Positions 3,676-58,841 of a DNA stretch of 64,000 bases are shown here, piece by piece; position 1 is the stretch's first letter, and each line of letters starts with the position of its first letter. Made by a program: the position numbers and the translations under genes. Below the pieces are notes generated by a model that made no database searches, was not told where the DNA came from, and saw only the letters and a program-made list of their open reading frames with translations. The stretch comes from Argiope bruennichi. Its lineage: Eukaryota. The stretch is from assembly GCF_947563725.1 (NCBI RefSeq), contig NC_079163.1, positions 54,630,922 through 54,694,921 on the forward strand, given 5' to 3'.

Positions 3676-4287
3676 TCTTCTTGTGTACAGCCGACTACCC
3701 CTCCACCACTGAACGTAGCAGTATCGACAGGATTTGTCGTGGCCGACTGCTATCTTTAACATTGTCCATCTTTACATTGACCGATTTGTCAAACTGACAT
3801 TTTCTTCGAGGTAATTGGCCACAAAGTGGTCAATTACTGTCCTTCTATAAAACAAGGAACAGGCCGTCACTAAGAGAAAATCTCCGCGAAATTCTAAATA
3901 TTTCTTCAAATTCTCGTTTCACAACAACTGAAATCCGGACACTTTCAAGCTCTCAAACAGTTAATAAAAACTGACAATTTTTAATATCTTCAGAGTTTTA
4001 AGATTACCTGGTATCATCAGTACTGTACTTAAGTCATTATTTTCAACTTTCAGATTTTTTCTTAACTCCAAGATTTCTATGCATTCCTTTAAATAGTGGT
4101 AAATAGTACCGATTCCTCCACAAATGCATTTATTTTCCTGTATTCTTCCAAATTTTTGGAAATATACAGGAACTCTCCCATGTCCTGATATAATCTGGAT
4201 TACCAGTGGATGGTATCTTCTTATGTTTATTTCTGGATTAGAAATAAAGTCGAAAGTTACTCTTCCTTTTCTGGACATATATCATAA
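3676..4287 (-). mobile_element. 5'-truncated non-LTR retrotransposon (LINE) fragment, 3' UTR plus ORF2 C-terminus, flanked by candidate 17-18 bp direct repeats
   Basis: It contains the RT C-terminal remnant at 3961-4278. Near-identical direct repeats GCAAAGTGGGCA(T/A)TGCGC lie at 3658-3675 and 4293-4310, bracketing the fragment as expected for a target-site duplication (TSD). Confidence 0.45.
3961..4278 (-). pseudogene. non-LTR retrotransposon ORF2 C-terminal domain remnant
   Basis: The translation ...IISGHGRVPVYFQKFGRIQENKCICGGIGTIYHYLKECIEILELRKNLK matches the conserved LINE ORF2 3'-terminal motif, tGHGxfxxYLxrFgxxxxxxCxCGxxxxTxxHxLxEC followed by R..L. Confidence 0.65.
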
Positions 4288-4627
4288 GCAAAGTGGGCAA
4301 TGCGCGAAATCACGAATTCAGTACTTTCATAGCAAAAACTGAAAACGGAACTTAGTTTCTGGATGCCTGGTGTATAATATTGTCATAAAGTTTTGAAGAT
4401 TATTTGAAATTAAAAATATTATTTTCAAAGGAACAGAAAGCTGCTTTTATTCTTTTTTTGTCGAGAAGCCATCCAAATAAACCTTGGTGAAATTAGAACT
4501 GTTTCCGCCATCTCGAAGGAAATTTGGACCATGTGAATAAGTCGGGAAAGGTAGTGATTATGCATGTAATTTTTTTCTTCTACGTCTTACATTAAAATTT
4601 GATGATATATGCTAAAATAGGAAGTGT

Positions 4628-4928
4628 CATTATTATGCACGCGGCGATTTTTGTCATTATTATGTGCACGGCGATTTTTGTCATTATTATGTATACGGCG
4701 ATTTTTGTCATTATTATGTGCACGGCGATTTTTGTCATTATTATGTACACGGCGAGTTTTGTCATTATTATGTATACTGCGATTTTTGTCATTATTATGT
4801 TCACGGCGATTTTTGTCATTATTATGTATACGGCGATTTTTGTCATTATTCGATTGTCATTATTATGTACACGGCGATTTTTGTCATTATTATGTATACG
4901 GCGATTTTTGTCATTATTATGTACACAA
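4628..4928. repeat. 27-bp minisatellite, about 11 copies (unit CATTATTATGTRCACGGCGATTTTTGT)
   Basis: Units were counted directly. One truncated unit lies at 4851-4863. All listed ORFs at 4592-5017 are artefacts of this repeat. Confidence 0.9.
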
Positions 4929-5543
4929 GATTTTTTTTAAAAAGCGAGATTTGTGCGACCACATATCACCATGAACATGTGAACATAAAATGTCACTTTA
5001 ACAATTTTCTATGTTAGCTCTATTGCAGTTCATCAACACTACAAGTATAATTCTAGGCTATGATTAATAGGCAATCTACATAGCAAAGTCTGGTACATTT
5101 TAATGCAAATAGAGAACAAAATAAGAAAACTGTAAGGCATGTTTAAAAGTAGATGTTTTTAAAGAAATAATAATTTTAATATAGATACAGCAAAATAATG
5201 AATTAACACCTATGAAACTCTACAAAAGTTTATTACGGAAATGAAAACAGTATTTGACTCCGCTTATTTAATGAAATTTCATTTATGTCAAAAAAAATTA
5301 TTCATACCTAAATATAATAATAAAATAAATGTTAGTAAATAACTTAGAGAAAATATTATTAAAAAAATTGAAAGCTTTTATTATGTTAAAAAAATTGTGT
5401 CAACGATTATGCTTGGTTTAATTTCATTCAAATAAAATTCAATCTTTACATTTTTAATAGTATTTAGTTTCATTAAAGAAAAAAAAGATTTATTTTTAAA
5501 TATTAATAACAAAGAAAGTCGTTTAATATTTTTCAAGGCACAA

Positions 5544-8715: not shown

Positions 8716-9380
8716 ATGATTGTTTCTTTTTAAAGTTAAATAAAATAAATCTTTATTTTATTATCAATCCATTTTATTATCACGTGTAATGATCATTAAT
8801 CGTCATATTATTCTATAATTAACTTTAAAGTCAAGAAAATATAAATGATGTACATATGCGAGATAACAATGTTTAAAATAAATTTTAAAGATTTTGTTTT
8901 TTCCAGGGAGAAAATTTATAATAAAATTATATATTTTAAATGTTAAATGGTATTTTTTTCCTTACTTTATTATTGTTTTTTTAAATGTCTTCGAACTAAT
9001 ATAAGTGTGGTTCTTTTTTACCCAGAGATTTTACCCCAAACTTCGAATTTCTTATCAGACGAAATGCATCTAAATTGCATAAATGTTATAACAATATCAA
9101 GAAAATTTGAAATTTAATTACAAAAAGACAAAAAAATGTTGGTTTTTTCGTAGGACAAATTTCGTAGCCTACGACATGCATATATATTCTACACGTTTTG
9201 TAACCATGTAAAGAAAATTTTAAATTTAGTTTTAAAAAACTGTTTATTATTTTCTGGGGAAAATCATTTTAAAATTGTTTATTTTTGATGGCTGCATTGT
9301 ATTTGATGCTTACTTTAAATTATTAATAAAATCTTGAGTCTATCCATTTTACTGGCATTTAAAACCTCAAAGCAACTCAA

Positions 9381-11215
9381 AAAATTATGATGGATGAAAC
9401 CCGGCATATGGTTTCATAACCATTACTGTAGATGTGCATCAACATTTGGACCGAATCCATCACAGGTGCGATTTTCTGTCAATATGCCTAACATGTGTAT
9501 ATGAAAAGGGCGAATCCAAAACACAAGCAAAAAGTATGATGGATGAAACCCGGCATATGGTTTCATAACCATTACTGTAGATGTGCATCAACTTTTGGAC
9601 CGAATCCATCACAAGTGCGATTTTCTGTCAATATGCCTAACATGTGTATATGAAAAGGGCGAATCCATCACAAGTGTGATTTTCTGTCAATATGCCTAAC
9701 ATGTGTATATGAAAAGGGCGAATCCAAAACACAAGCAAAAAGTATGATGGATGAAACCCGGCATATGGTTTCATAACCATTACTGTAGATGTGCATCAAC
9801 TTTTGGACCGAATCCATCACAAGTGTGATTTTCTGTCAATATGCCTAACATGTGTATATGAAAAGGGCGAATCCAAAACACAAGCAAAAAGTATGATGGA
9901 TGAAACCCGGCATATGGTTTCATAACCATTACTGTAGATGTGCATCAACTTTTGGACCGAATCCATCACAAGTGTGATTTTCTGTCAATATGCCTAACAT
10001 GTGTATATGAAAAGGGCGAATCCAAAACACAAGCAAAAAGTATGATGGATGAAACCCGGCATATGGTTTCATAACCATTACTGTAGATGTGCATCAACAT
10101 TTGGACCGAATCCATCACAAGTGTGATTTTCTGTCAATATGCCTAACATGTGTATATGAAAAGGGCGAATCCAAAACACAAGCAAAAAGTATGATGGATG
10201 AAACCCGGCATATGGTTTCATAACCATTACTGTAGATGTGCATCAACTTTTGGACCGAATCCATCACAAGTGTGATTTTCTGTCAATATGCCTAACATGT
10301 GTATATGAAAAGGGCGAATCCAAAACACAAGCAAAAAGTATGATGGATGAAACCCGGCATATGGTTTCATAACCATTACTGTAGATGTGCATCAACTTTT
10401 GGACCGAATCCATCACAAGTGTGATTTTCTGTCAATATGCCTAACATGTGTATATGAAAAGGGCGAATCCAAAACACAAGCAAAAAGTATGATGGATGAA
10501 ACCCGGCATATGGTTTCATAACCATTACTGTAGATGTGCATCAACTTTTGGACCGAATCCATCACAAGTGTGATTTTCTGTCAATATGCCTAACATGTGT
10601 ATATGAAAAGGGCGAATCCAAAACACAAGCAAAAAGTATGATGGATGAAACCCGGCATATGGTTTCATAACCATTACTGTAGATGTGCATCAACATTTGG
10701 ACCGAATCCATCACAAGTGTGATTTTCTGTCAATATGCCTAACATGTGTATATGAAAAGGGCGAATCCAAAACACAAGCAAAAAGTATGATGGATGAAAC
10801 CCGGCATATGGTTTCATAACCATTACTGTAGATGTGCATCAACTTTTGGACCGAATCCATCACAAGTGTGATTTTCTGTCAATATGCCTAACATGTGTAT
10901 ATGAAAAGGGCGAATCCAAAACACAAGCAAAAAGTATGATGGATGAAACCCGGCATATGGTTTCATAACCATTACTGTAGATGTGCATCAACTTTTGGAC
11001 CGAATCCATCACAAATGTGATTTTCTGTCAATATGCCTAACATGTGTATATGAAAAGGGCGAATCCAAAACACAAGCAAAAAGTATGATGGATGAAACCC
11101 GGCATATGGTTTCATAACCATTACTGTAGATGTGCATCAACATTTGGACCAAATCCATCACAGGTGCGATTTTTTGTCGATATGTCTAACATGTGTATGT
11201 GAAAAGGCGAATCCA
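9381..11215. repeat. 149-bp satellite array, about 12 units
   Basis: The period was measured from recurring landmarks: AAAGTATGAT starts at 9739, 9888 and 10037, giving 149 bp. Units alternate between CAACATTTGG and CAACTTTTGG variants. One unit, at about 9600-9720, carries an internal 58-bp duplication. The edge units are more diverged. Confidence 0.9.
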
Positions 11216-11379
11216 AAACAGAACGAGTGTATTGAGTTTAGAATGCTTTATGATTCCTTGGCGCCAAAAATATTAATTTCGGAATCATGCCTATCTCTGA
11301 ACCCAATAACACAAAAGCTCAATGAACTTGAAAGATAAACTATATACGGGCTTTTTACTTAAAAAATTTGGACTTCTTC

Positions 11380-22182: not shown

Positions 22183-22326
22183 TCCTCCCTCTGGTGTGGT
22201 GTGAAAGTTTGGAGAGTGGGTGCTAGCTAAGTTGTCGTCCTCATCATCTGACCGTGGTTCAGAATTACGAGGTCCGTCCCAAAATATCCCTATTATTGCT
22301 TTAAAAATGGACATTAATATAACTGA
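22183..22326 (+). mobile_element. tRNA-derived SINE family 1, 5'-truncated copy (3' half only)
   Basis: It aligns to 32680-32810 of the full copy: CTGGTGTGGTGTGAAAGTTTGGAGAGTGGGTGCTAGCT...GGTCCGTCCCAAAATATCCCTATTATTGCTTTAAAAATGGACATTAATATAACTGAA. Confidence 0.7.
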
Positions 22327-23397
22327 ATTGACTGCATTCATAAGCTGATTTGTTGCAATTATTCCTTTTTATTCGATTTTTTGATATGATAAACCGCCTG
22401 TTTTTAGTTCAGTTATGCAGTATCTTTCGTAGCTTCTATTTCTTTTATTTATTTTTATCATATTTACAAATTCTACATCTATAAAATATATATACTAAAT
22501 TATCTTTATGACAAGTTTTCAGTATTACGTTATTATCAGTTTTTAGTAACTTGTAAGATTTTTTTTTTATTTCGCATCTGCTTTTATAAAAGTTTTATCA
22601 TTATTCCACCGTGACAATGTTTAACGGCATTAAAATGTTGCGTAAAAGGGACTCTGCAACACAAAATTATGCAAAAGTATACAAAACTAGAAAGATTTAA
22701 GACAGAGAATTTTGAAAGAAAGTCATTGTAGAGTGATGTTTTTCAAAATGGCTTCAAGGAAAGGTTTTCGCTTATACTAATATTGTCTCAAGATATGCTA
22801 TATATTTGTTAACAATATTGTGCTATTATTTATTTGTTAATTTTAATATATCATACATTATAACAACAAATTCAAAATGGAAAACTTTACACTTGACGTG
22901 CCTTAAAAATTTGTTTTGAAACCCTGCTATCATATTCTTATTGAGTTAAGATATTTTGATTTTTAATATAAAACTTATATTACTTGTAATGTACACCGGT
23001 TCTCTCGCTTTCAATGTATTAAATCTCACCTAATTTATTCATTAAATGTGCATCTCCTATCATTAACTTATACAACTTCCACATACTTTTACAAATCAAA
23101 TTTCATTATGAAACTACGGCATTTTTTAATGAATAATCTTTTTCATTGAATGAAATATTTTTGAGAAACCATGTAAGAAAATTATCTTTTGTTGAAATTC
23201 ATCCAAGATCAACCAGACGTCCTTTATTCTGGCCTTTTAAAATGGAATTAATAAATATGAAGTATGGAATATTTAAATATCATTTCAAAGATGCCTACGG
23301 TGATAAAAAGAAAACGTAGAATTTAACTGAAATTTACGAAACTTTTCAAAATATGTAAATGTATAATTTATGAGGATAGAGAAAAAAGAATTAAATT

Positions 23398-24550
23398 TTA
23401 GGTGATGCAGTATGTAGCTTAAAAGTTTTCGTAATATATTTACAATCAAATGTTTTAAATCAAAATATTAATCTTGAATAATTAAAATATACTAATTTCC
23501 GAATTTTGTTCACTTTCTCACGTTTCCAATAATTATTTTACCATCAAACTTTCAGAAAACCATATTTCTGCCACAGAAGGTAGCAGAAAATATTTCAAAA
23601 TGCTTAGTTTTTACTTCAAATTATTAAATTTTAGGTGATGTAGTATGTAGCTTAAAAGTTTTCGAAATATATTTACAATCAAATGTTTTAAATTAAAATA
23701 TTAATCCTGAATAATTAAAATATACTAATTTCCGAATTTTGGTCACTTTCTCACGTTTCCAATAATTATTTTACCATCAAACTTTCAGAAAACCATATTT
23801 CTGCCACAGAAGGTAGCAGAAAATATTTCAAAATGCTTAGTTTTTACTTCAAATTATTAAATTTTAGGTGATGTAGTATGTAGCTTAAAAGTTTTCGAAA
23901 TATATTTACAAGCAAATGTTTTAAATCAATATATTAATCTTGAATAATTAAAATATACTAATTTCCGAATTTTGGTCACTTTCTCACGTTTCCAATAATT
24001 ATTTTACCATCAAACTTTCAGAAAACCATATTTCTGCCACAGAAGGTAGCAGAAAATATTTCAAAATGTTTAGTTTTTACTTCAAATTATTAAATTTTAG
24101 GTGATGTAGTATGTAGCTTAAAAGTTTTCGTAATATATTTACAATCAAATGTTTTAAATCAAAATATTAATCTTGAATAATTAAAATATACAAATTTCCG
24201 AATTTTGGTCACGTTCTCACGTTTCCAATAATTATTTTACCATCAAACTTTCAGAAAACCATATTTCTGCCACAGAAGGTAGCAGAAAATATTTCAAAAT
24301 GTTTAGTTTTTACTTCAAATTATTAAATTTTAGGTGATGTAGTATGTAGCTTAAAAGTTTTCGTAATATATTTACAATCAAATGTTTTAAATCAAAATAT
24401 TAATCTTGAATAATTAAAATATACAAATTTCCGAATTTTGGTCACGTTCTCACGTTTCCAATAATTATTTTACCATCAAACTTTCAGAAAACCATATTTC
24501 TGCCACAGAAGGTAGCAGAAAATATTTCAAAATGTTTAGTTTTTACTTCA
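23398..24550. repeat. 233-bp tandem repeat, about 4.9 copies
   Basis: The landmark TTAGGTGATG recurs at 23398, 23631, 23864, 24097 and 24330, an exact 233-bp period. Units are more than 95% identical. Confidence 0.9.
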
Positions 24551-32541: not shown

Positions 32542-32810
32542 GGGCCGCAGTGGTCTGGTGGTAAGGTTTCGGCTTCGGAACCGGAGAGTTTCAGGTACGA
32601 GACCCGATTCCACCGAAGAACCGTCCTGTAAGCGGGTCTGGTGCACGTTCGTCGGGGTCAAACGACCTCCCACCGGTGTGGTGTGGAAGTTTGGAAAGGG
32701 GTTGCAAGCTCAGGTGTCGTCCTCGTTATCTGACTGCGGTTCAAAATTACAAGGTCCGTCCCAAAATAGCCCTAGTGTTGTTTTAAAACGGGATGTTAAT
32801 ATAACTAAAC
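32542..32810 (+). mobile_element. tRNA-derived SINE family 1, full-length reference copy of about 270 bp
   Basis: The tRNA-like head GGGCCGCAGTGGTCTGGTGGTAAGG...GGTACGAGACCCGATTCC has an A box (TGGTCTGGTGG) and a B box (GGTACGAGACC). The conserved body is ...GGTGTGGTGTGGAAGTTTGG...GGTCCGTCCCAAAATAGCCCTAG... and the 3' end is GTTAATATAACTAAA. At least 8 other copies occur in the window. Confidence 0.8.
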
Positions 32811-32847
32811 ATAGGCTCCTAAAATTCCGATATCGTAGAGCAAACCT

Positions 32848-32982
32848 CCTGCCTTTGGTGTGGCGCACAAGTTTGGACAGGGAAGCGATAGCTTAAGTGT
32901 ATTCCTCTTCATCTGACCTAAGGCTCAAAATTAAAGACTCTTGTGTTGCTTCAGAATAAGGCGATAATATAATTAAATTCCT
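32848..32982 (+). mobile_element. SINE family 1, partial copy (3' half), lying 40 bp downstream of the full copy
   Basis: CCTCCTGCCTTTGGTGTGGCGCACAAGTTTGGACAGGG...CTCAAAATTAAAGACTC...ATAATATAATTAAAT aligns to the SINE 3' half. Confidence 0.65.
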
Positions 32983-35092: not shown

Positions 35093-35346
35093 TGCAGGAT
35101 TCCAAGTTCGAGACCCGATTCCATTAAAGATCCGTCGCGTATGCAGCCCTATTGCACGTTAAATCTGGCGTTGAGTGCCAAATGTTCTTCCGTTGGTGTG
35201 GTGCGGAAATTTGAAGAAGTGGTGCCAGCTCAGGTATCTTCCTCTTCATTTGACCAGGGTTCGAAATTTCAAGGTCCATTCCAAAATAGCCCTTATATTG
35301 CTTCCTAACGGAATGTTAATATAACTAAACTAAACTAAACTAAACT
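35093..35346 (+). mobile_element. SINE family 1 copy, 5'-truncated by about 40 bp, with an (AAACT)4 tail
   Basis: ...TCCAAGTTCGAGACCCGATTCCATTAAAGATCCGTCGCGTATGCAG...GGTCCATTCCAAAATAGCCCTTAT...GTTAATATAACTAAACTAAACTAAACTAAACTG. Confidence 0.75.
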
Positions 35347-36584
35347 GATTAATCTGAAATGTAATTTTCCTTTCTGATTTGGATATATGTATGCAAATTT
35401 TACTTTATTTTTTGAAAAGTTAATTTAGTTAAGGGACGGTGGACTGTAATAGGCATTTTTGAGAATTATTCACTTAGAGTTATGAAATTTTTATGTATAT
35501 GTATTATAATATAAATACGTCAAATTTCTTTTTAAAAAAACTTTTAAAAACGAAATATTTTTTAAAAGTTAAGATATATCATTTTTTTTAAATTTCAAAA
35601 TATTTCAGGCGACTCAATTTTTTATTTAATTTAATTTTTTTTTTACCTTTTTATCCAATATAATTTTATTTGTAATAAAACTGTGTGTGATTTAGTAATT
35701 CCAATTAAGTTCTAATGTTTTAGAAATATTTTAATATACACTCACTGAATTTTTATAAGAATTTCATGTTTTTCGGAACTAAAATTAACTTTTCACTATC
35801 TAAAAAAACACTAGAAATATAAAAAGCATACCCTATGTTCTTTAATGTTTAATTGAAATCTTTATTATCAATTAATTCTATTTAATTTCTTCAAAAACTA
35901 AGACATCTGGAACATTTCCAAGATATTTAAATCTAACTACAATATCATTTTCGGAAAGTAATTAAAATGTGCGTTTATTTTTCTACGCCTTTGAAATGTC
36001 TGCTTTATTGAATACTAGCCGCCTTTGGCGACCAGCCGGTTCGCCAATCTTAATGTTCGTTAAAATTTTAATAATTAAATATTTTATGCAATTTCTACTT
36101 TAATAGCTTCTTCATCAAAATATTTTAAAACTTCAAATTTTGATTATCATATAATTCATTCATAATATTATAAAGGCCTTCAGTCATAACGTAATATGTA
36201 TCTCTCTCATTTTCTGTTAGCACCCGTAGAATTTATGCTTTAAATTAAAGTGGAAAGAATTTATCTTCAATTAATATAATAATATTTTTTACTGAAACAA
36301 AGCATTTTTTTATAATCTGATTACTGAAAATAGAGTCACTCAGCGTTTAAACTTTATGGGCACTAAAGAATATTTTTTTAAATTTATGTAATATCTCAAG
36401 AGTTGGTCAACAAAATTTTCTTAGATTCATTATGAGCAGATCGATTCATTAACAATGTTTAAATTTAAATGCATCAAACACTAAGAAAATAAAACGAATC
36501 GTTTAAAATAAACGGTTGAAAACAGGTTTTAAAAAAACTACTTAAAAAACGTTGTACTTAAAACTATAAGCATATACATGTTGC

Positions 36585-36660: not shown

Positions 36661-36959
36661 CTACGTCAGTTGGGGTAACGCTATGCGGATTAGAAATTTT
36701 TAATTTCCTTTATTCTGTTTTATTTTAATTCAAAAGTACTTCAGAATGAATCTGAAAGATTGATTCATTAACAATGTTTAATTTTAAATGCATCAAACAT
36801 TAATAAAATAAGCAGAACCGATTGAAATAATCCGCCGAAAAATTTTAACCCTAGCCTCATTACTGTTGGGAGAAAAAAACAACGGAAGCCTTTCTCGTTT
36901 GGCGCTGGGGATAATGGAAGATTTTTTTGGCGGAAAAGTTGGCGGTGGGGAAAATGGAA

Positions 36960-37152: not shown

Positions 37153-39035
37153 GCTTTATTATAAGTATATAGATACATCTTATAACACAACTTAATTGAA
37201 TATAAAATATATATTTTGATGAGAAAACGATAAAAATAAAATTTCATGTTTCTGTCCCTTTTTTCTTATTTCAAAGTTCAATGTCCTCAAGTACCATTCA
37301 CAAGCATGAAATAAGCCGAGTTAAATAAGAGTGTCTAAAAACAAACTGAAGAAAAAGCTCTAGTTCTGAGTTCTTTATTTTACTCACGTACTGTTATTTC
37401 CGCAAAGAAATGTGTTTTAAATTAAGGAATATAGTCTTATAAAAGTTATTGTATCTTCAACTTGTTTTGAATTATTTTTTTCAAAATGATTTAAAGACTT
37501 TTTGAGAAATAAGATATAGTCAGGCTCTGACGAGTTGTTGGGGGCGTCACAAGAATTGAGTGTTACTAGAAGAGTCTAATTTGATAAGATAGGAAGCGGA
37601 CATGAGTTAATATTTATAAAATCTGACCTTGTTTCTTTTCTTCATAATACACTATTGAAGATATATTAATAATGAGAAACAGAGGAGTAAAATGTTCAGA
37701 GTTCAAGGCAGTTGTATTTATTGCACTCGTATTTTTTCTCCGTTTCGTAGTTTTCTTCCTTTTCGAATGTGCACTCATTTGTCTGAGGTAATAAGATTAG
37801 GCGCTAACTCATCACAGACAAACTATAATTCTTTCAAAACTTTTATAAAGCATTTTCTGTATTTTATGTTGCATGAATTAAATTTGGAAATGAAAACTTC
37901 TCCTGACAGATATTCAAAAACTCGATTTAGCACAAGATTCTATCACCCTCATACACAAATTTACATTTTGTTAAAAGCATACTTTAGATTCAAATTGCTT
38001 CTTGATTTAAATAACTTAAAACAATTCTTACATTCTCTTTATTCTTTGTTTCAAAAAATGAAAGTTAATTCACAAATTATGATTGCAGCAAGTCGTTTTA
38101 TTTCAATTTGTTCTCTTAATAAATTACAGTATTTATTCACGATTTCAAAGAATCAATTCCTTACGAATCCAAATGAATGAGCAAGTAATTGAAAGGTTAA
38201 ACATTCAATAATGAAAATGATTGTTACTTTCTTATTCAGAAGATAAAACAATGTTACTTTACATGAAAAAGTATCATCTAAAATTAACAGCCTTTCAGAA
38301 GAGGAAAAACTCCCATTTAATTTATTAACTAACGTTTCTTACTCTTAATTATGTATAAGAAACAACAACTCTAAGTTGTATACTACTGGCTATTTTTTCT
38401 CTAAAGGAATTTCCAAATGATCCATTCTTAGAATTTACAGTGTTTTGATTTTAACAAAACTTGTTTAAAGAACTTTGGGGAAAAAAATTCTTCTTTCTAG
38501 ATTTCGAATAGATAGTGTAGAAATTATTCTATTCTTAAACTCCTGAACGTTTTGGGAATAGAATTACAGGTAAAAGCGTAAGAAGAAATCGAATATCATA
38601 ATTATTTTAATAGAAGTTTCAGTAACAAAGGGTAATTCGATTATTCGAAGCATGCCTTTCCGAGGACAGATAAGGACAAGAACATGAAAAGGTACTTTAT
38701 TACCTCTGTTAATGGGATTAAATTGAAGTAAGAAAAAGTTCGAGGTGGGGAATACATGGCCAAGATATCTTCTTAAAAGTGCAACAAAATATTTCAAAAA
38801 TCACTTTTAATCTAGGTTAATAATTTTTTGGGGTTTTTATACAATTTGATATTACTTTTTATTTTGGTCTACTAACCATCTTATCACATCCACTCAAGGG
38901 AATAAAAAATTCTTTTTATTTCTTTAACTCACATTGTACTTTAATAAAAAGAATTAAAAATAATATGTAATAATAAATAGTGTTTCAGTAATAAGCATGG
39001 AATAGTTGTTTAATTCTTTCATATTAGACTATTAG

Positions 39036-39311
39036 CCGACGTCCTGGCATGAGGATAGCGCATCTTCCCTGTGTTGTCCCTGGTTCGAATCCCGGTTCGG
39101 GCATGGTTGTTCTTCATTTGTATTCTATCTGTGAGGTGTATGAATGTGCTCCCCCCCCCCTATAAAAAGGGGTTGTGCAAGCGAATGTGTGTGCGTCATC
39201 TTCATATGAGCTAGAAGTCAGACTTCTGCCCTCGGGTGCTCAGGGGTCTTTACCCTCAGAAGATACTGCACCCACTTTCCGTGGTAACGCGGACACGACA
39301 TCATCATCATC
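39036..39311 (+). mobile_element. tRNA-derived SINE family 2, 276 bp, with a (CAT)5 tail and a perfect 12-bp TSD
   Basis: The head GCCGACGTCCTGGCATGAGGATAGCGCATCTTCC...CCCTGGTTCGAATCCCGGTTCGGGCATGG carries a canonical B box (GGTTCGAATCC). The tail is ACATCATCATCATCAT. ATTAGACTATTA lies at 39024-39035 and again at 39312-39323. Confidence 0.8.
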
Positions 39312-39765
39312 ATTAGACTATTAAAAATGGGGGGAAATATTTATCAAAAATTTGGACTCCAAAACAAAATCGTAAAATCATCAAACGCTAATAATAATAC
39401 GCTACGAAAATTTTTATTACATCTAATACAAATTTAAATTTTTGGGAGTTTTATTTAACATTATTTTTCTTGTGACAATATCTTTACAATATTGTTCTCG
39501 CACATTCACGGTTGTTTTTAACCTCCAAATTTTTCGGGAAATTGTTTTATTTTTAGGACACTAGAAGTTTAGCACTAAAACTTTTTCTTTTCTGTTTTTC
39601 GGTCTTTAGTTGGCTTCATAAATCGTTACACATATCTGCAAAAAATAGCTCTATCACGTTTTAAAGGAGAAATGATTTATGGAAAAAGTTAAAATTTCTT
39701 ATAGTTGTATCTTTTTTTATTCAAAATTTCTTTCATTTTTCTTCCGGCGAACTTATAAAGATTGT

Positions 39766-44974: not shown

Positions 44975-45284
44975 TGTATAACACTGTACTCAGTTCAATC
45001 CCGTTTCAAAGTAGCACTAGGGCTATTTTGGAACCAATTTATGATGAGAACGACGCCTGAGCTGGCACCCTCTCTTTTAACATCCGCACCACCCACAACC
45101 ACCGACAGATGGTGCCTATCTGTGGTTGTGGCACCACACCAGTGGGATGACATTTGGCCCCGACGGATTTAATATGCACAATGCCCGCTTACACGACTGT
45201 ACTTCGATGGATTCGGGGTTCGAACCTGAAACTCTAAGTGTTCCGAAACCGAGACCTTATAACCAGGCCACCGAAACCCTCGCC
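44975..45284 (-). mobile_element. SINE family 1, full-length copy on the minus strand
   Basis: The reverse complement gives GGCGAGGGTTTCGGTGGCCTGGTTATAAGGTCTCGGTTTCGGAACACTTAGAGTTTCAGGTTCGAACCCCGAATCCATCGAAG...GGTGCCAGCTCAGGCGTCGTTCTCATCATAAATTGGTTCCAAAATAGCCCTAGTGCTACT. Confidence 0.75.
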
Positions 45285-45485
45285 TAACATTGGACTTATC
45301 TAATATCTGTGTGGCATTGAAGAGGAGTAATTTTTTCAAAGCTTCAGTGATTTAAAATAATTCCGTAAAGAAATATCTTCACATTTTACCTCCTTGTTTC
45401 TTTTTGGATCAATAATAGATATTCTACTCTTCTTCAAGTAATATCTATATTAAGTAATAGCAGTATCTATACCATACATATCGAA

Positions 45486-45727
45486 TTCACAATAAAAGGG
45501 CTATTCAAATTTTAGTTTCATAGTTACATTAGGGCTATATGGGAAAGAATCTCGTAATTTGATTCGCAGTCAGTTAATGAAGACATCTAAGCAGGCACCC
45601 ACTTCTGTACTCTACCATCAATTAAACTCCTACAAACAAACGAGGTGATTCTTTGGTAAAAACGGGTTTCAAACTTGGAAGTCTCCGTTTCAAAGTCAAG
45701 ACCTTACCATTAAGTCTCTGCGATCAG
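45486..45727 (-). mobile_element. SINE family 1, minus-strand copy with an internal deletion, 200 bp downstream of the previous copy
   Basis: The 3' region TAGGGCTATATGGGAAAGAATCTCGTAATTTGATTCGCAGTCAGTTAATGAAGACATCTAAGCAGGCACCC and the head region GTTTCAAAGTCAAGACCTTACCATTAAGTCTCTGCGATC both align to the reverse complement of the SINE. Confidence 0.55.
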
Positions 45728-46184
45728 GGAAATAAGTTGAGAGAAAGGTATCCTATATTTCATTTGATGTATCAGTTAAGAAAAATGAAAAAGAATGTTT
45801 TATATTATTTCGCATTCATATGTACCGATTTCGAATTTAATAATCATTTTCTTCCTTAAATTATATTCGATTATTCGTTAGATTTTGAGCAGACCAAACC
45901 CCAAAATAAAATGGGGATATCTGCAGTAAAAAGAAAGTCGCTTACCTCTATCTTAGAAATTTTAAGGACTTAAAATTTGTAGCTTTTTTCAGACCTTGGT
46001 AGCTCCACTACATATTCTTAAATTTCTTTAACAAAAAGTATTGTCGCCATATGTGGAAGATACAATAAGCGGGAATTAAAGTCATCCACATTATTATTTG
46101 AAGACAAATAAATTTATTCCATGAAAGAGGAGAAATTTGCTTGGTTCAGCAATGCAACGTTTGTTCGTTTCCATATAAAGAAGA

Positions 46185-47130
46185 TGGCCTTGGTAATCTA
46201 ATATTAAGATCCCAGCTTCGGGTTTGGAGAGCTCCATGTTCGAATCCTGATTTCTCTAAAAATCTGACATGATTTGTACAAATTAAATATGACGACTTCT
46301 CGTTGATATTGTAATGTCCCGATCTAGACTGATCAAATAACGAAGCAGAATTTCCAGACAATTCTTTATTTTACAGCCCTATATATATATAAAGAACAAT
46401 TTGTTCTAATCTTGATTAAATAAATAGATATTTACACCTGTAGTAGGAGATACAACAGTCAAAATCGGAGATTTTTCTTGAAACTCATTTCTTTATCTCG
46501 TCAACATGACCATTCCAGGGGTAGTTTCTCAGACTCCGAACTCGTGGGCGTAGTCCAACAGTTCCTGCAATTCGTTTCTTCTCTCCTCTTGAAAAATAAA
46601 TCTCCCCGCTTTATTTCGGCGACAATCTCCGCCTCTTAATTTACATTGGTCATTTGAGCTTTCCTTCGGCCAAACGGGGTTCAGCCATATGCTCTCTCAG
46701 CGGCGCCAGTGGGTCGTGGGAAAGTCCTTTCACAAAGAGAAACATCTAGCATCCAGATGTTCGGACACCCCTTTCTCTTTGAAGGTACTGTCATACCTCT
46801 GGGACGAGGAATTCCTTATGTGGTCTTTTATTGTAGTTGCTAATGAACAGATGCGAGACCACCCAGGTGAAAAGATCCATCATCTGGCTATCTAGACTTT
46901 AGTAAGTAATAGCGACAACACAATGAATCAGTACAACACAATGTCTTATCAGTACAGGGAAACGGGGAATGTTACAATATAGTGAGGAAGTTTGGAGAAG
47001 CAGGTACCAACTTACATTTCGTCCTCAACATCTGATCAGGGTTATAAATTGTGAGATCAGTCCTAGAAATAGTCCTAGAGTTATTTAAAAATGGGAATTT
47101 TGCATAACTAATTAGACTATAAACAAGGAA
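46185..47130 (+). mobile_element. SINE family 1 copy interrupted by a GC-richer insertion of about 640 bp (roughly 46320-46955) of unknown origin
   Basis: The head at 46185-46320 is GGCCTTGGTAATCTAATATTAAGATCCCAGCTTCGGGTTTGGAGAGCTCCATGTTCGAATCCTGATTTC. The 3' part at 46955-47130 is GGGAAACGGGGAATGTTACAATATAGTGAGGAAGTTTGGAGAAGCAGGTACCAAC...AGTCCTAGAAATAGTCCTAGAGTTATTTAAAAATGGGAATTTTGCATAACTAAT. The insert carries short ORFs on both strands, for example 46689-46895. Confidence 0.45.
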
Positions 47131-49721: not shown

Positions 49722-49871
<150 letters not shown>

Positions 49872-50519
49872 CTTATGGCACATTAAAAGCCCAGTTATCT
49901 GTCATCGATTTAAGCCGAGTGAGCGTGTCTTGTTTTTTCAGTAGGGCCAAGAATACGACTTAGCTGCTTCATGCGCCACATTCGCTTACACAACCCCTTT
50001 CTACAGAGTGTGTGTGTGCACATTCACTTCAAATAGGTGAAAAAATTCTAAAAATCGAACTCGACAACTCAAATAACATTTTTAAATGGGAGAAATTTTT
50101 TAGCTAAATTTCTAAAAATAAATTGAATACATTAAGATTTTAAATCATTTTTACCGAACACATTATTTCTATACAATTATAAAGCTAACACCACAAATTA
50201 TTCGATACTGTGAAATACTTTTTTGATATTTTATAAGATTGTACAATTTGCATATAAAACTATAAAAAATTTAACTTGTATAAGAAATGAATCGCCACTC
50301 GTCCTCCTTCAAACGATCAGGTAAATTAAGATTGATTGATTGATTAATTCATCTGATTAATCAATTTCATTAAATAAATTACAATACTTTTAATTCATTT
50401 TTTAACTTTCTCGTATGCGCAGTATATAGAAGTATAGGAATCTTTAAAAAAATTCGAATTCTAGATTTTGACGAATCTCCACATTTTAAACCTCCATGAG
50501 TTCAAAAAACACATTTCTG

Positions 50520-50720
50520 GAAAATGTCCGTCCGTCCTTCTTTCTGTGACAAATATAACTCAAAAACGCTTTGATCTAGAGGGTTGAAATTTGGTATACG
50601 GTCTTTGCACAAAATATGCAGAATCAATTTTTGAAAAACTGTGTTTGCCCGGCAATTCGAATATAAATTAACACGATAATTACAAAAATGAAGGCATGGT
50701 ATATGTAGTAAAAACGTGAA
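50520..50720 (+). repeat. interspersed repeat family D, copy 2
   Basis: See 44085-44480. Confidence 0.5.
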
Positions 50721-51012
50721 ATTAACACCAAAAGTTAATATTTCGTATCTATTGTACGTCAATGCCATGTGAAGCATTCTCTGTTAAAAATGTTAAATTC
50801 ACGCCAAAAGTTAATATTTCGTAACTATTGTACGTCAATGCCATTTGAAGCATTCACTGTTAAAAATCTTAAATTCACGCCAAAAGTTAATATTTCGTAA
50901 CTATTCTACGTTAATGCCATGTGAAGCATTCACTGTTAAAAATCTTAAATTCAAGCCAAAAGTTAATATTTCGTAACTATTCTACGTCAATGCCATGTGA
51001 AGCATTCTCTGT
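50719..51012. repeat. 76-bp minisatellite, about 3.9 copies (unit AAATTCACGCCAAAAGTTAATATTTCGTAACTATTGTACGTCAATGCCATGTGAAGCATTCACTGTTAAAAATCTT)
   Basis: The period was measured as 76 bp: unit starts at 50719 and 50795. Confidence 0.85.
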
Positions 51013-51099: not shown

Positions 51100-52410
51100 C
51101 ATTAGTATCCAAAAGTGATTTTATCAACAACATGACTTATTAGAGAAATATTATGGCCTTTGTATAAATAATAGAGTAGGAAATAATATTTGCTACAAAT
51201 CCAATATTCCTAACAAATTGAGTTTTCATGCTACTTCACAAATTCAGTGCTCGATTCCAAACAACTCAATTCAATACAGTTATCTGCAAACACAGACGAT
51301 AATGTGTTTTCATACATTATCGTAAACACCATCAATAATGTGTTTAAAGGTCACATATATATTAATTATTCGCTTGAATTTACATGTTTCTTTGTCAACG
51401 GGTTAATCCAATGGCACAAACACTTTCAGATGGAAGCCGTCGTTGGATAACCCATTTCGCTTTCAACACAACCTTTCTAATTCCATTTGCTTACAAATTA
51501 ATCTATTCAAGTCTTCCAGGAAACGATTTCGTGTCTCTTTTCAAAGCAGCCCATATAAATTATTCCGAATTAATTCCACAAATTAAATCGCAAATCATCG
51601 CGACGAATTCGATATCTAAAATGTGGTTTTTCGAAAATCTCGGCAACACTTATAAACAATAATCCTTATCAAATGAGTTAATACCTTAATCATGGTATGA
51701 ATTCTTTTAGGGACCTTTTCACTTTTGCCACAACATATTCGCGGCGATGACAATGCAAGGATTTCGGATATTTTTATCTGAAAACGAATCTGCTTTGCAT
51801 TCGCTTTTCAGAGTCATTAATTTCTCAGATCCCCGTGAAAGAATTTAAGATATTTCTAACGCGTTGATTATTAAGAAAGCTCGTTTTAGAAACAAACATC
51901 ATTTATTTTCGCTAAAAAGATTTTCATTGTTGTCCGATTTTGTTTCGAATCGACTTTTGAAATGTAAACGAGGTGGTGTTAAAGTTCGTCTGGAACTTAA
52001 AATGCTTGTAATTTGTGGTAAGTGTAGCATATGAAATAGTAAGAAATAGTCCGTGAAATGGTTTTAAAAGCTTGATATATCTCTTTGTATTTACATATTT
52101 TAATTTTATAAATTTTATTTGAAAATCACTTACTGAAAAATAACTTATCAAGATCTCCATTAATTCATGACTTCACCAGAACAGGAAATAGTGTTATTTG
52201 ATCGTTTGAGTAAAAATATACCTCTATTGTTGAAAGAAACTTGAAAGACAGATTAGATACGAAATATTATATAAAAATTCTACATATAAGTCGATCCAAA
52301 AACAATTTTTCTTTGCTATGAAGCCCTTTCTTTTCTATAAAAAGTTAGACGCACAAAGCTTTTAAAACTACCATACAGATTTTTTTTCTAGTACATATAA
52401 AATTATAGCA

Positions 52411-52685: not shown

Positions 52686-53891
52686 TATAATTTCTGCAAA
52701 AGTTAGACACACAGAGCTTTTAAATCCATTATATAATTTTTTCTAGCACTTATTATAAAATTATAACAACTCGATACTGCTAAAAATTATCTACACACGA
52801 AATATAATGTCACATCTAAATGATTCTTATTAAAAAAAATACCGAAAGAGTATGTGGTATGTATTGTTTGCTTATATGCACACTCAATATAAGGATACTG
52901 TCACATCTAAATAATTATTTAAAACCGAAAGAGTACTTTTATGTATCCTCCCATATTATATTTTGTTTGTTTGTTGTAATCACATATAACCTATATTTTT
53001 GAACCTTCATCAAAAGTAAACGAATAGGAAGATTTTAAATACTGATATAATTACTTTATAGATAATTAAAAGTAATGAAAAATAAACCCCAATAAAAAAA
53101 AATGTCCTGCTTTTAAAGAATGCACATATAGCAAAGTAAAATTTGACAAAACTTTGCCAGGTTTTAAGGAGTTTTAGAAAACTTTCTTTTAAATTTTGGT
53201 GGAAGCAACCATAACCCCAAAACGTTATAGCTGCAAGTTTCGGTTTTCGATCACATGATGGAGAATGATTTTATTTGTTTAAAGATTGGAAAGCTCAACC
53301 ATTCCGAAAGGGTCGTCTGTATTTATCATTTAGAAAACTCTGGAGAAAAGAATAGCTTATTTGTACTTTATTTATCTTGTAGAATACGAATTGCAATTAT
53401 CCAAAGTACTTTTTTTTTATGCCAAATGCCGTAATAAATTGAATTTTTCAGAATTTCTGTGGATTTTCGGGTTTGTAACAAACAGTACATAAAATAAACT
53501 TTTTAAATGACGTTTTATCAGTGTTTAAAAAAAGAGAGGATTATCAGATATCTAGAGATAAAAAAATCATAAAAGCGTGCGGCGCAAATAGAAAAGCATT
53601 AATTTGGAATTATAGTAGTATTTATAGCATTTTAATTTTCATATAACGAATACTTGGAATTTTTTTTTTTCTTCTCCAGTTGTTTGCTATGTTTTCTGCT
53701 TTTACGATTTTTGTTTCCACTTCCAAATTTGTCTAAAAAAAATTACTTTTCTTTTCCAATACACTGATATAAGAATTTTCTTTACGTTTATTGATATATT
53801 TTCAATTTTATTTTTTATCTTTATTTGTTGTAATATTCATTGTGATTTAAGAAAGACAAGCGCAGACACAATAGCATTGCAGTTGCAGTAC

Positions 53892-56312: not shown

Positions 56313-58683
56313 TTAAAATCTGAGATTGAGTAAGCGATAGCCATATTTACATGCTTGCTGAAAATTACTCTCATGATGATGAAAATAAATATTTCACAAT
56401 TTCATTTCAAATTCTGAATACAATAATGTTGCTATTTTTTCATAATTTTCTGCCAACGATACGTACCAAATGCATCAAAGCTGCAATATATGCAGTTTTC
56501 CGTACTTTTCTCAATGCAAGATTGCTGTACTTGGTGGTGCATTTACTCACATAACCCACATATTAAACAAAATTGTCTTTGAAAGTGAACATAATGATGA
56601 TATGAAGCAGACAGAAAATATTTATAAGCATATACAAAAGTAAAGATATTTATTTCAATTAAACTGTGCTACTATTATTTATTTTTCTTTTTATTGTTTT
56701 AATTACTAGAGCAATGAAAAAGATATTACAAGTGCAAATACATTCATTTATATGATGCTTATAAATCTATATTAAATGCTGTGTTATGTGGTAAAAATTT
56801 ATTTAATGGCGCATTTAAGGAATAAATATGTATTAAGAGCTTTTATGTGTTGAAACAGGAAAGAAAAACTATTTAATTGCGGATGTTTATGATTGTAATT
56901 AATTTGCTTTATTATAAGAGTAAAAATGTTTTTTATCTATTACTGACCTAGATAAGCTATAAATTTTTATAAACGTTAAATAGTTATGTAAACATTTTAT
57001 GTTTAACTAAGAGTATTCATAAAATATTTTTAGATTAGTATAATCAAAAACATTTCAAGTTAAAGTGGACGAATTTTTAAAAGTAAGCAATTATTTAGTA
57101 ATTGCGTCTTCATATACTGACAACAATCCACTTTATTTTGCTGTCTCCTTTCAAAAAACCTTAAAATTTCATGCAGAAAAAAATAGCAACGAATTTTGCA
57201 AAGAATCTTAAGAAACTTAAAAGAAAATACGAAGAAGAAGAAAGAAGAGTTTATAATGTCATCAGCGATAGAAAATATGTTTTAAATAAGAAATTTTAAA
57301 CAAAATCAACGCCATAATTAAAACAAAAACATTTCATGTATTTTGCACTGAATACTATTAAAAAATGTCGGAAGCCAATTTTTTAAAACAGGTTTTTCCT
57401 TTTATGCTGAAAACAAATATTTATTTTAATTATCAGCATTTTAAGTTTTAATTTATCATAAATATCGCAAAATTTTGATGATTTTCAAATTACCCACCAT
57501 GGGGCGCCACTCGAAAAGAATAAAAATTTCATTAAATAAATTAACTTATCAAAATCTATAAATATCAAAATACTACACAGTCATCAACAACGTTTAAGTG
57601 TGCAGAATTTCGAAATTCTACCACATAAAGAAGCGAGTGAAAATCGATTACAGACTTCCATCCTAACAAACATGGAAATTAAATAAATGTATATCAAATT
57701 CATAATTCCCTTGTCGTAGCAAAGCAATTTAAAGCATCCTGTAATGAGTATTGTTAAAACAAATTGACGTTGTAATTAAATTATTTCATAATAGATAAAA
57801 CCTTATCTGAATAAACTAAAGCCATTATGGCTTGAGCACAATAAAGCGTCAATGAGATTAACATCAGTTCTCATTTAAACACTTGAAAGATTTGTAAGAC
57901 TGTTTTTATTGCCATAATTACCCGTTCAAAGCGACTCAACAACTAAGAAGGGGCCAAAAAAGTTAAAAAACACATTCTGAATGCCGGGAAATGCGATTAT
58001 CGCGTGACCCATCTCACCAAGTGAAACATCAAAAACTCTTTCAAACGAAGAAACGCTATTCAGCAAGCGTTGACGCTTCCGAAGACTGAATAAAAAGAAT
58101 TTGTTTTGTTACTTGAAAGATAAACAGCAAATCGAATAACAGAATAAACAAAACTATCAATGATGTCGAGGAATAAAGAGTACCAGTTTTTTATAGTTTA
58201 TAATAATTTCACAAATAAAAAGATCATTCATACATTGTGTTCTACTTTTTTTCCTTTTTAATCCTTTTAATTATACTCAAAACTAAAGTTTGAAGCATAT
58301 TTTATCAAATCTATTTATTTTCCAGTTTTAAATGAAAGAAATTTAATCGTTGTTTCTTTTTCTTTTTTCCTTTTTATTATTTTTTTAATTCTGGAAACGT
58401 TATCAAATGATAATTTTTTTATTATTGAGACGGAAAGGAATTCATAGTTAATTCTCTTTTAATTCAGCGAAAAGACTGTTTTCGCTAAGTGTATTTGAAA
58501 TTGCAATTAATTAAATAAATAGTTAATTAGGCACGAAATTAAAAAAAATGTTAATAATACACACGGGGGGTTTTTAAACTTATAATTAATTATTGGGACT
58601 AAATTTAAACTTATTTTTGAAATGACCAATGACAAGTCACTTTCGGTGACAAGGTGTTCTCCCTTTATACCCTAGTATTTATT

Positions 58684-58841
58684 CATCATCATCATCATCA
58701 TTTCATTAATCATCATTATCATCATTTCATTAATCATCATTATCATCATTTCATTAATCATCATTATCATCATTTCATTAATCATCATTATCATCATTTC
58801 ATTAATCATCATTATCATCATTTCATTAATCATCATTATCA
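58684..58841. repeat. 24-bp minisatellite x about 6.5 (unit CATTTCATTAATCATCATTATCAT), preceded by (CAT)6
   Basis: Read directly. The ORFs at 58654-58926 on both strands are artefacts. Confidence 0.9.

Follow-up and report, generated by a model that had tools for sequence, protein, structure and literature searches.

The locus described here raises the question of whether a GC-rich segment in a spider genome represents a copy of a tRNA-related SINE that was inserted with a target-site duplication (TSD) and, if so, whether it belongs to a young and possibly still mobile family. The window, meaning the whole 64-kb stretch of DNA that was analysed, has a GC content of 29%, which falls inside the range of 28.6-33.6% given for spider genomes (PMC8693713). 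This value and the resemblance of one of its SINE families (family 1, see below) to DNA of the orb-weaver Araneus ventricosus mark the window as spider DNA, probably araneoid, while an exact look-up of 20 of its ORFs in the protein collection gave no match. The segment in question (39035-39311) has 52% GC, as compared to 25% and 27% in its two 300-bp flanks. An original prediction, made from the same stretch, described the segment as a recently inserted SINE with a strongly tRNA-like head, a (CAT)n tail and a perfect 12-bp TSD, and these claims are taken up below together with the explanations that compete with them.

The anatomy and the exact boundaries of the copy can be read directly from the letters (Table 1). 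The 64-kb window contains the 12-mer ATTAGACTATTA at two places and nowhere else, 39023-39034 and 39312-39323, as a perfect direct repeat. Their left contexts (TTTCAT and CATCATC) and right contexts (GCCGAC and AAAATG) diverge directly outside the 12 nt, and since the match stops at this length on both sides, the repeat does not belong to a longer duplicated stretch. Thus, the predicted TSD holds as a perfect 12-bp repeat with two copies, but its 5' copy had been placed at 39024-39035 and lies 1 nt further to the left, so that the element spans 39035-39311 and measures 277 bp, not the 276 bp first given. The element opens with GCCGACG, and its 3' boundary is ambiguous by at most 2 nt because the 3' repeat opens with AT, which keeps the CAT period of the tail. 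The flanks have no second occurrence in the window or in the Araneus ventricosus loci used for comparison, and there is accordingly no paralogous empty site in the data searched.

Table 1. Coordinates, within the 64-kb window, of the 277-bp element, its parts and related features.
Feature	Position	Strand	Remarks
SINE-like retroposon (head, body, tail)	39035..39311	+	277 bp
TSD, 5' copy	39023..39034	+	ATTAGACTATTA; adjoins first base of element
TSD, 3' copy	39312..39323	+	second of the two ATTAGACTATTA occurrences in window
tRNA-related head	39035..39103	+	cloverleaf with relaxed ARAGORN; negative with Rfam tRNA
Weak A-box-like stretch, TGGCATGAGGA	39045..39055	+	putative; read from the letters
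Exact pol III B box, GGTTCGAATCC	39082..39092	+	matches GGTTCGANNCC
Central core common to second element	39125..39195	+	BLASTN, Smith-Waterman, nhmmer
Predicted hairpin, UCCGUG-GUAA-CGCGGA	39278..39293	+	MFE and centroid folds; directly upstream of tail
Microsatellite tail, (CAT)4 plus C, CATCATCATCATC	39299..39311	+	CAT period runs 2 nt into 3' repeat
Core of related element	49972..50045	-	BLASTN and nhmmer
Family-1 SINE copy	32543-32810	+	
Family-1 SINE copy	35100-35336	+	
Family-1 SINE copy	22183-22327	+	
Family-1 SINE copy	52413-~52690	+	
Family-1 SINE copy	~45080-45292	-	

At its 5' end the element carries the canonical B box that had been predicted, an exact match located 48 nt from the first base. 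Exact GGTTCGANNCC sites are found only twice in the window, while nine matches are obtained when up to one mismatch is allowed, as compared to 2.8 expected. The candidate A box fits the pattern TRGCNNAGTGG at about 5 of the 9 specified positions. The description of the head as strongly tRNA-like was overstated, as it is missed by ARAGORN at default settings, which reports no tRNA gene in the window, and by the Rfam tRNA model, which gives no match at E<=10 on either 551 nt or 86 nt; a search of Rfam at gathering score likewise returned nothing. On these results a functional tRNA gene was rejected. With ARAGORN thresholds relaxed to 80% (-ps80), a tRNA-Glu(TTC)-like cloverleaf with the arms in the right order is called at 39033-39104, at a setting under which 39 of 2000 shuffled heads (~2%) also score and 38 'tRNAs' are called in the window. 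In global alignments with 22 tRNAs, the head is ~65-70% identical to several of them, and no parent tRNA emerges as a clear winner, with Gly-CCC, Glu, Gly-TCC and Phe lying within 3 points of each other. We therefore take the head to be a diverged tRNA-related sequence in which the B box is intact and the A box poor. Further tRNA-like stretches are present at 46176-46259 (+) and 45653-45740, one of them with TGTTCGAATCC, and these may be heads of additional SINE families.

The 3' end of the element reads CCGTGGTAACGCGGACACGA followed by (CAT)n, with CACGA standing directly before the (CAT)4 tail, and the (CAT)n tail of the original prediction is present at 39299-39311 as (CAT)4C. Upstream of this tail a hairpin is predicted, which we treat as descriptive only because the fold energy is no better than that of shuffled sequences (z=-0.85); the RNA folds of the 3' end, of the whole element and of the head likewise do no better than shuffles. 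On the sense strand the element contains no T4 run, where ~1.5 would be expected from its composition, and the nearest one beyond its end lies at a distance of 100 nt. In the antisense direction, an A5 run at element position 130 would act as a pol III terminator. The missing sense-strand T4 is weakly suggestive of pol III transcription from the head. All six reading frames are interrupted, the longest open stretch being ~52 aa.

Direct repeats of this length are frequent enough in the window to ask whether a GC-rich patch with a degenerate tRNA pseudogene could simply lie between two fortuitous 12-mers. After masking of tandem arrays, 16 pairs of isolated exact direct repeats of >=12 bp were counted at distances of 150-500 bp, as compared to ~9 in Markov shuffles, with a background rate for such pairs of ~7e-7 per position and offset. 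Taken alone, the 12-mer pair is therefore not rare in this AT-rich window, and the commonness of such background pairs, together with the noise of the relaxed ARAGORN setting, lends some credit to an accidental arrangement. What makes the pair significant is that no base separates it from either end of a segment that is defined independently by the GC step, the promoter-bearing 5' end and the microsatellite 3' end. The chance of the 12-mers adjoining both the first base of the head and the last base of the tail is estimated at ~3e-5, allowing for ~50 boundary combinations, and the coincidence would have to extend to the GC step, the tail, the exact B box and the lack of T4 runs. We therefore regard a chance juxtaposition as very unlikely.

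The tandem arrays of the window include a 149-bp satellite at 9380-11220 with more than 10 copies that are 98% identical, a 233-bp array at 23390-24550 with 5 copies, a 27-bp minisatellite at 4625-4935, a 76-bp array at 50719-51012 and a 24-bp array at 58677-58841, the last of which creates a His-rich ORF. In addition, a near-perfect direct repeat of ~40 bp (GATTCATTAACAATGTTTAA.TTTAAATGCATCAAACA) is found at 36443-36483 and 36762-36802, 319 bp apart, where it flanks ~275 bp of unrelated sequence, and it may stem from a local duplication or mark the termini of a different element.

The general abundance of 12-mer repeats, 16 pairs against ~9 expected, would also be compatible with the segment being a MITE, or a piece of some larger element (an LTR or the 3' end of a LINE, for instance), that contains a tRNA-like stretch. 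However, the two ends of the element are not linked by an inverted repeat, which argues against a MITE, and its ends are not of the TG...CA form. DNA transposons produce target duplications of a fixed length between 2 and 10 bp, and the 12-bp duplication found here exceeds that range. Furthermore, the segment holds no coding remnant and is polar in its layout, the promoter and the microsatellite lying at opposite ends. Based on this, an origin as a MITE or as a fragment of a larger element is very unlikely.

The structural features of this single copy support a SINE insertion with TSD. Our reading of the segment as a SINE is based on its size, the exact B box, the tail, the 12-bp TSD and the absence of terminal inverted repeats and of a sense-strand pol III terminator. 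The GC step at its boundaries and the presence of other SINEs in the host genome, namely family 1, point the same way. For a tRNA-derived SINE, a non-coding element of ~80-700 bp with a microsatellite or A-rich 3' end and a TSD of ~6-18 bp in the absence of terminal inverted repeats is expected, and what we find is 277 bp without coding capacity, (CAT)4C, and a perfect 12 bp adjoining both ends with no such inverted repeats. Published working criteria for tRNA-SINEs (PMC11481361) set a length of 200-700 nt, TSDs of 6-18 bp, a 3' end that is a microsatellite or poly-A, and either A/B boxes or a 5' end related to a tRNA, and the 277-bp element falls within all of them. In our judgement, 39035-39311 is very probably one copy of a tRNA-related SINE in the spider genome.

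Microsatellite-tailed tRNA-SINEs are mobilised by 'stringent' LINEs of the CR1, L2 or RTE type (SINEBase, PMC11481361, PMC4824008). The 277-bp element resembles them in its length, its 12-bp TSD and its lack of coding capacity and terminal inverted repeats, and also in the order of its parts, which runs from a head with a B box through the body to a 3' stem-loop and a short tandem-repeat tail. It differs in that its head is too diverged for tRNA detectors, and its (CAT)n tail was matched to no named LINE. Within the window, no 3' end of a partner LINE resembling the tail was found. An ORF of 105 aa with a Cys/His motif at 3961-4278 on the minus strand resembles the C-terminus of ORF2 from a non-LTR retrotransposon and is the only LINE-like ORF in the window; its 3' region is unrelated to the tail, and it has neither a Pfam match nor a homologue in the protein database. 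Pfam searches with five ORFs of the window gave nothing useful.

LINE-mediated retroposition of SINEs is an established mechanism (Kajikawa and Okada 2002, as cited in PMC4824008), and for the present copy we infer pol III transcription, a LINE partner and priming by microhomology. RNA polymerase III, using the internal B box and the degenerate A box, would have transcribed a master copy, and the transcript would have read on into the flanking DNA as far as a T run. The reverse transcriptase of the partner LINE would then recognise the 3' end with its hairpin, CACGA and (CAU)n, while the LINE endonuclease would nick the target at TAAT^ATGA on its bottom strand. The freed ...AT-3' end could pair with the AU of a CAU repeat and prime cDNA synthesis, and a top-strand nick 12 bp downstream (ATTA^AAAA) would leave staggered ends, the repair of which would yield the duplication of ATTAGACTATTA.

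Whether the element belongs to a propagating family depends on finding it again, and no second full-length copy was detected in the window (BLASTN at word size 7, nhmmer --max). The same holds for 291 kb of A. ventricosus sequence in 14 loci (BLASTN and nhmmer), and at the density of the window, i.e. one copy per 64 kb, the probability of finding zero copies in 291 kb is ~1%, which suggests that the family is absent or rarer in that species. Searches of metagenome, prokaryotic-genome and viral contig collections with exact and degenerate patterns of the core, head and tail returned no copy, and no match was found when the six-frame translation of the body was compared with 5.8 billion predicted proteins. 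A literature search with sequence strings also gave no match.

The element had been described as the only one of its family in the window, and this stands with regard to full copies; its central core, however, recurs on the minus strand at 50045-49972. The shared core comprises 50-60 bp at roughly positions 92-160 of the 277-bp element, with 82% identity over 50 bp in BLASTN and E=7e-5 in nhmmer, and its Smith-Waterman score of 53 is reached by none of 300 shuffles (16.8+/-2.2). The second element (49722-50045, minus strand) has a 3' part unlike that of the 277-bp element, terminates in (CA)n/(GT)n over 149 bp (49722-49870), and has a 5' end that is decayed or truncated; no TSD was found around it. 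With the core reused under different tails, (CAT)n in one case and (CA)n in the other, the 277-bp element is not unrelated to everything else in the window. The build of head, core and tail, together with a core that recurs under another tail, is typical of SINE modularity.

These results bear on an explanation in which the copy is an orphan, i.e. a single pol III or read-through transcript that was reverse-transcribed once by a LINE and never gave rise to a propagating family. Such an origin would agree with the lack of a second full-length copy in the window, the A. ventricosus loci and the protein search, but absence outside the source genome says little, and a family is favoured by the build of head, core and tail as well as by the recurrence of the core with another tail. 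We consider an orphan retrocopy to be unlikely and infer instead a multi-copy family for the SINE described here.

[quoted passage not shown] Both window elements resemble HCD-SINEs in that they share the core of 50-60 bp and differ in their 3' modules and tails. Members of the V-SINE superfamily carry a conserved V domain of ~80 bp in the body, and members of the CORE-SINE superfamily, such as MIR, a CORE domain of ~65 bp. In the 277-bp element, a 26-bp stretch, TCTGTGAGGTGTATGAATGTGCTCCC, matches the start of the central region of fish V-SINE/DANA at 21 of 26 bases, and the score of this match, which was found after several trials, is reached by 0-4 of 500-1000 shuffles. Past those 26 bp, no local alignment to the rest of the V domain was obtained. 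Moreover, TCTGTGAGGTGTATGAATGTGCTCCC lies mostly upstream of the core common to the second element, which has no V-like match of its own. With the several trials allowed for, the likeness to V-SINEs may be called suggestive at most. Membership in the CORE-SINE superfamily was rejected, as the alignment of the element body to an MIR/CORE consensus is no better than shuffles, 163 of 300 of which reach its score. Both comparisons with known central domains serve as leads only.

Beyond the insertion as such, a more specific reading can be put forward tentatively, and we think it rather doubtful as a whole. The element may represent an undescribed, lineage-restricted spider SINE family that is absent or rare in A. 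ventricosus, with the core being a conserved domain common to at least two families whose LINE-derived tails differ, (CAT)n in one and (CA)n in the other. This would be an HCD-type superfamily and possibly a distant relative of the V domain, and its (CAT)n member is perhaps mobile.

The age of the insertion bears on a comparison with the other SINE family of the window (family 1), with which the element had been contrasted. Family 1 has ~7 matches in the window and is abundant in A. ventricosus, where 38 BLAST matches in 291 kb stand against zero for the 277-bp element. Its DNA aligns at 70-87% to loci of that species. The two are alike in being interspersed, of similar size (e.g. 32543-32810 for family 1) and equipped with a tRNA-like head, but they have no sequence similarity past the generic B-box region. 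They are also alike in that one copy of family 1 has perfect 12-bp flanks: the 12-mer TATAAAATTATA stands at 52396-52407 and 52754-52765 around the copy at 52413-~52690, which is 20-30% different from the other copies. This pair is part of an imperfect duplicate of ~28 bp (TTTTTTCTAG.AC..TATAAAATTATA) and encloses, in addition to the diverged family-1 copy, ~70 bp of additional sequence. Perfect 12-bp flanks thus occur around old copies too. An ORF across one family-1 copy (32558-32896) matches 19 'hypothetical proteins' of A. ventricosus, and these gene models are therefore probably SINE-derived ORFs and not real genes.

The original prediction took the perfect TSD and the intact head to imply a young insertion, and this conclusion is not supported. 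A perfect 12-bp duplication puts only 24 bases at risk, which barely constrains age: it would still be the likelier outcome up to a divergence of ~3% and is not improbable at 10%. As just described, a diverged copy of family 1 is perfectly flanked as well. Decay of CpG is useless as an age clock here, since the window itself has a CpG observed/expected ratio of 0.88 (0.70 in the element). A young and still mobile element is possible but not shown.

The finding as it stands, the insertion of an ordinary tRNA-related SINE accompanied by a 12-bp TSD, is well supported. Its significance beyond annotation is small, and the current understanding of retroposition is unchallenged by it. If the family were confirmed, the repeat libraries of spiders, which are poorly curated, would gain one SINE, and its insertions would offer presence/absence markers. 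The occurrence of the core under two tails would, in addition, be one more case of SINE module swapping.
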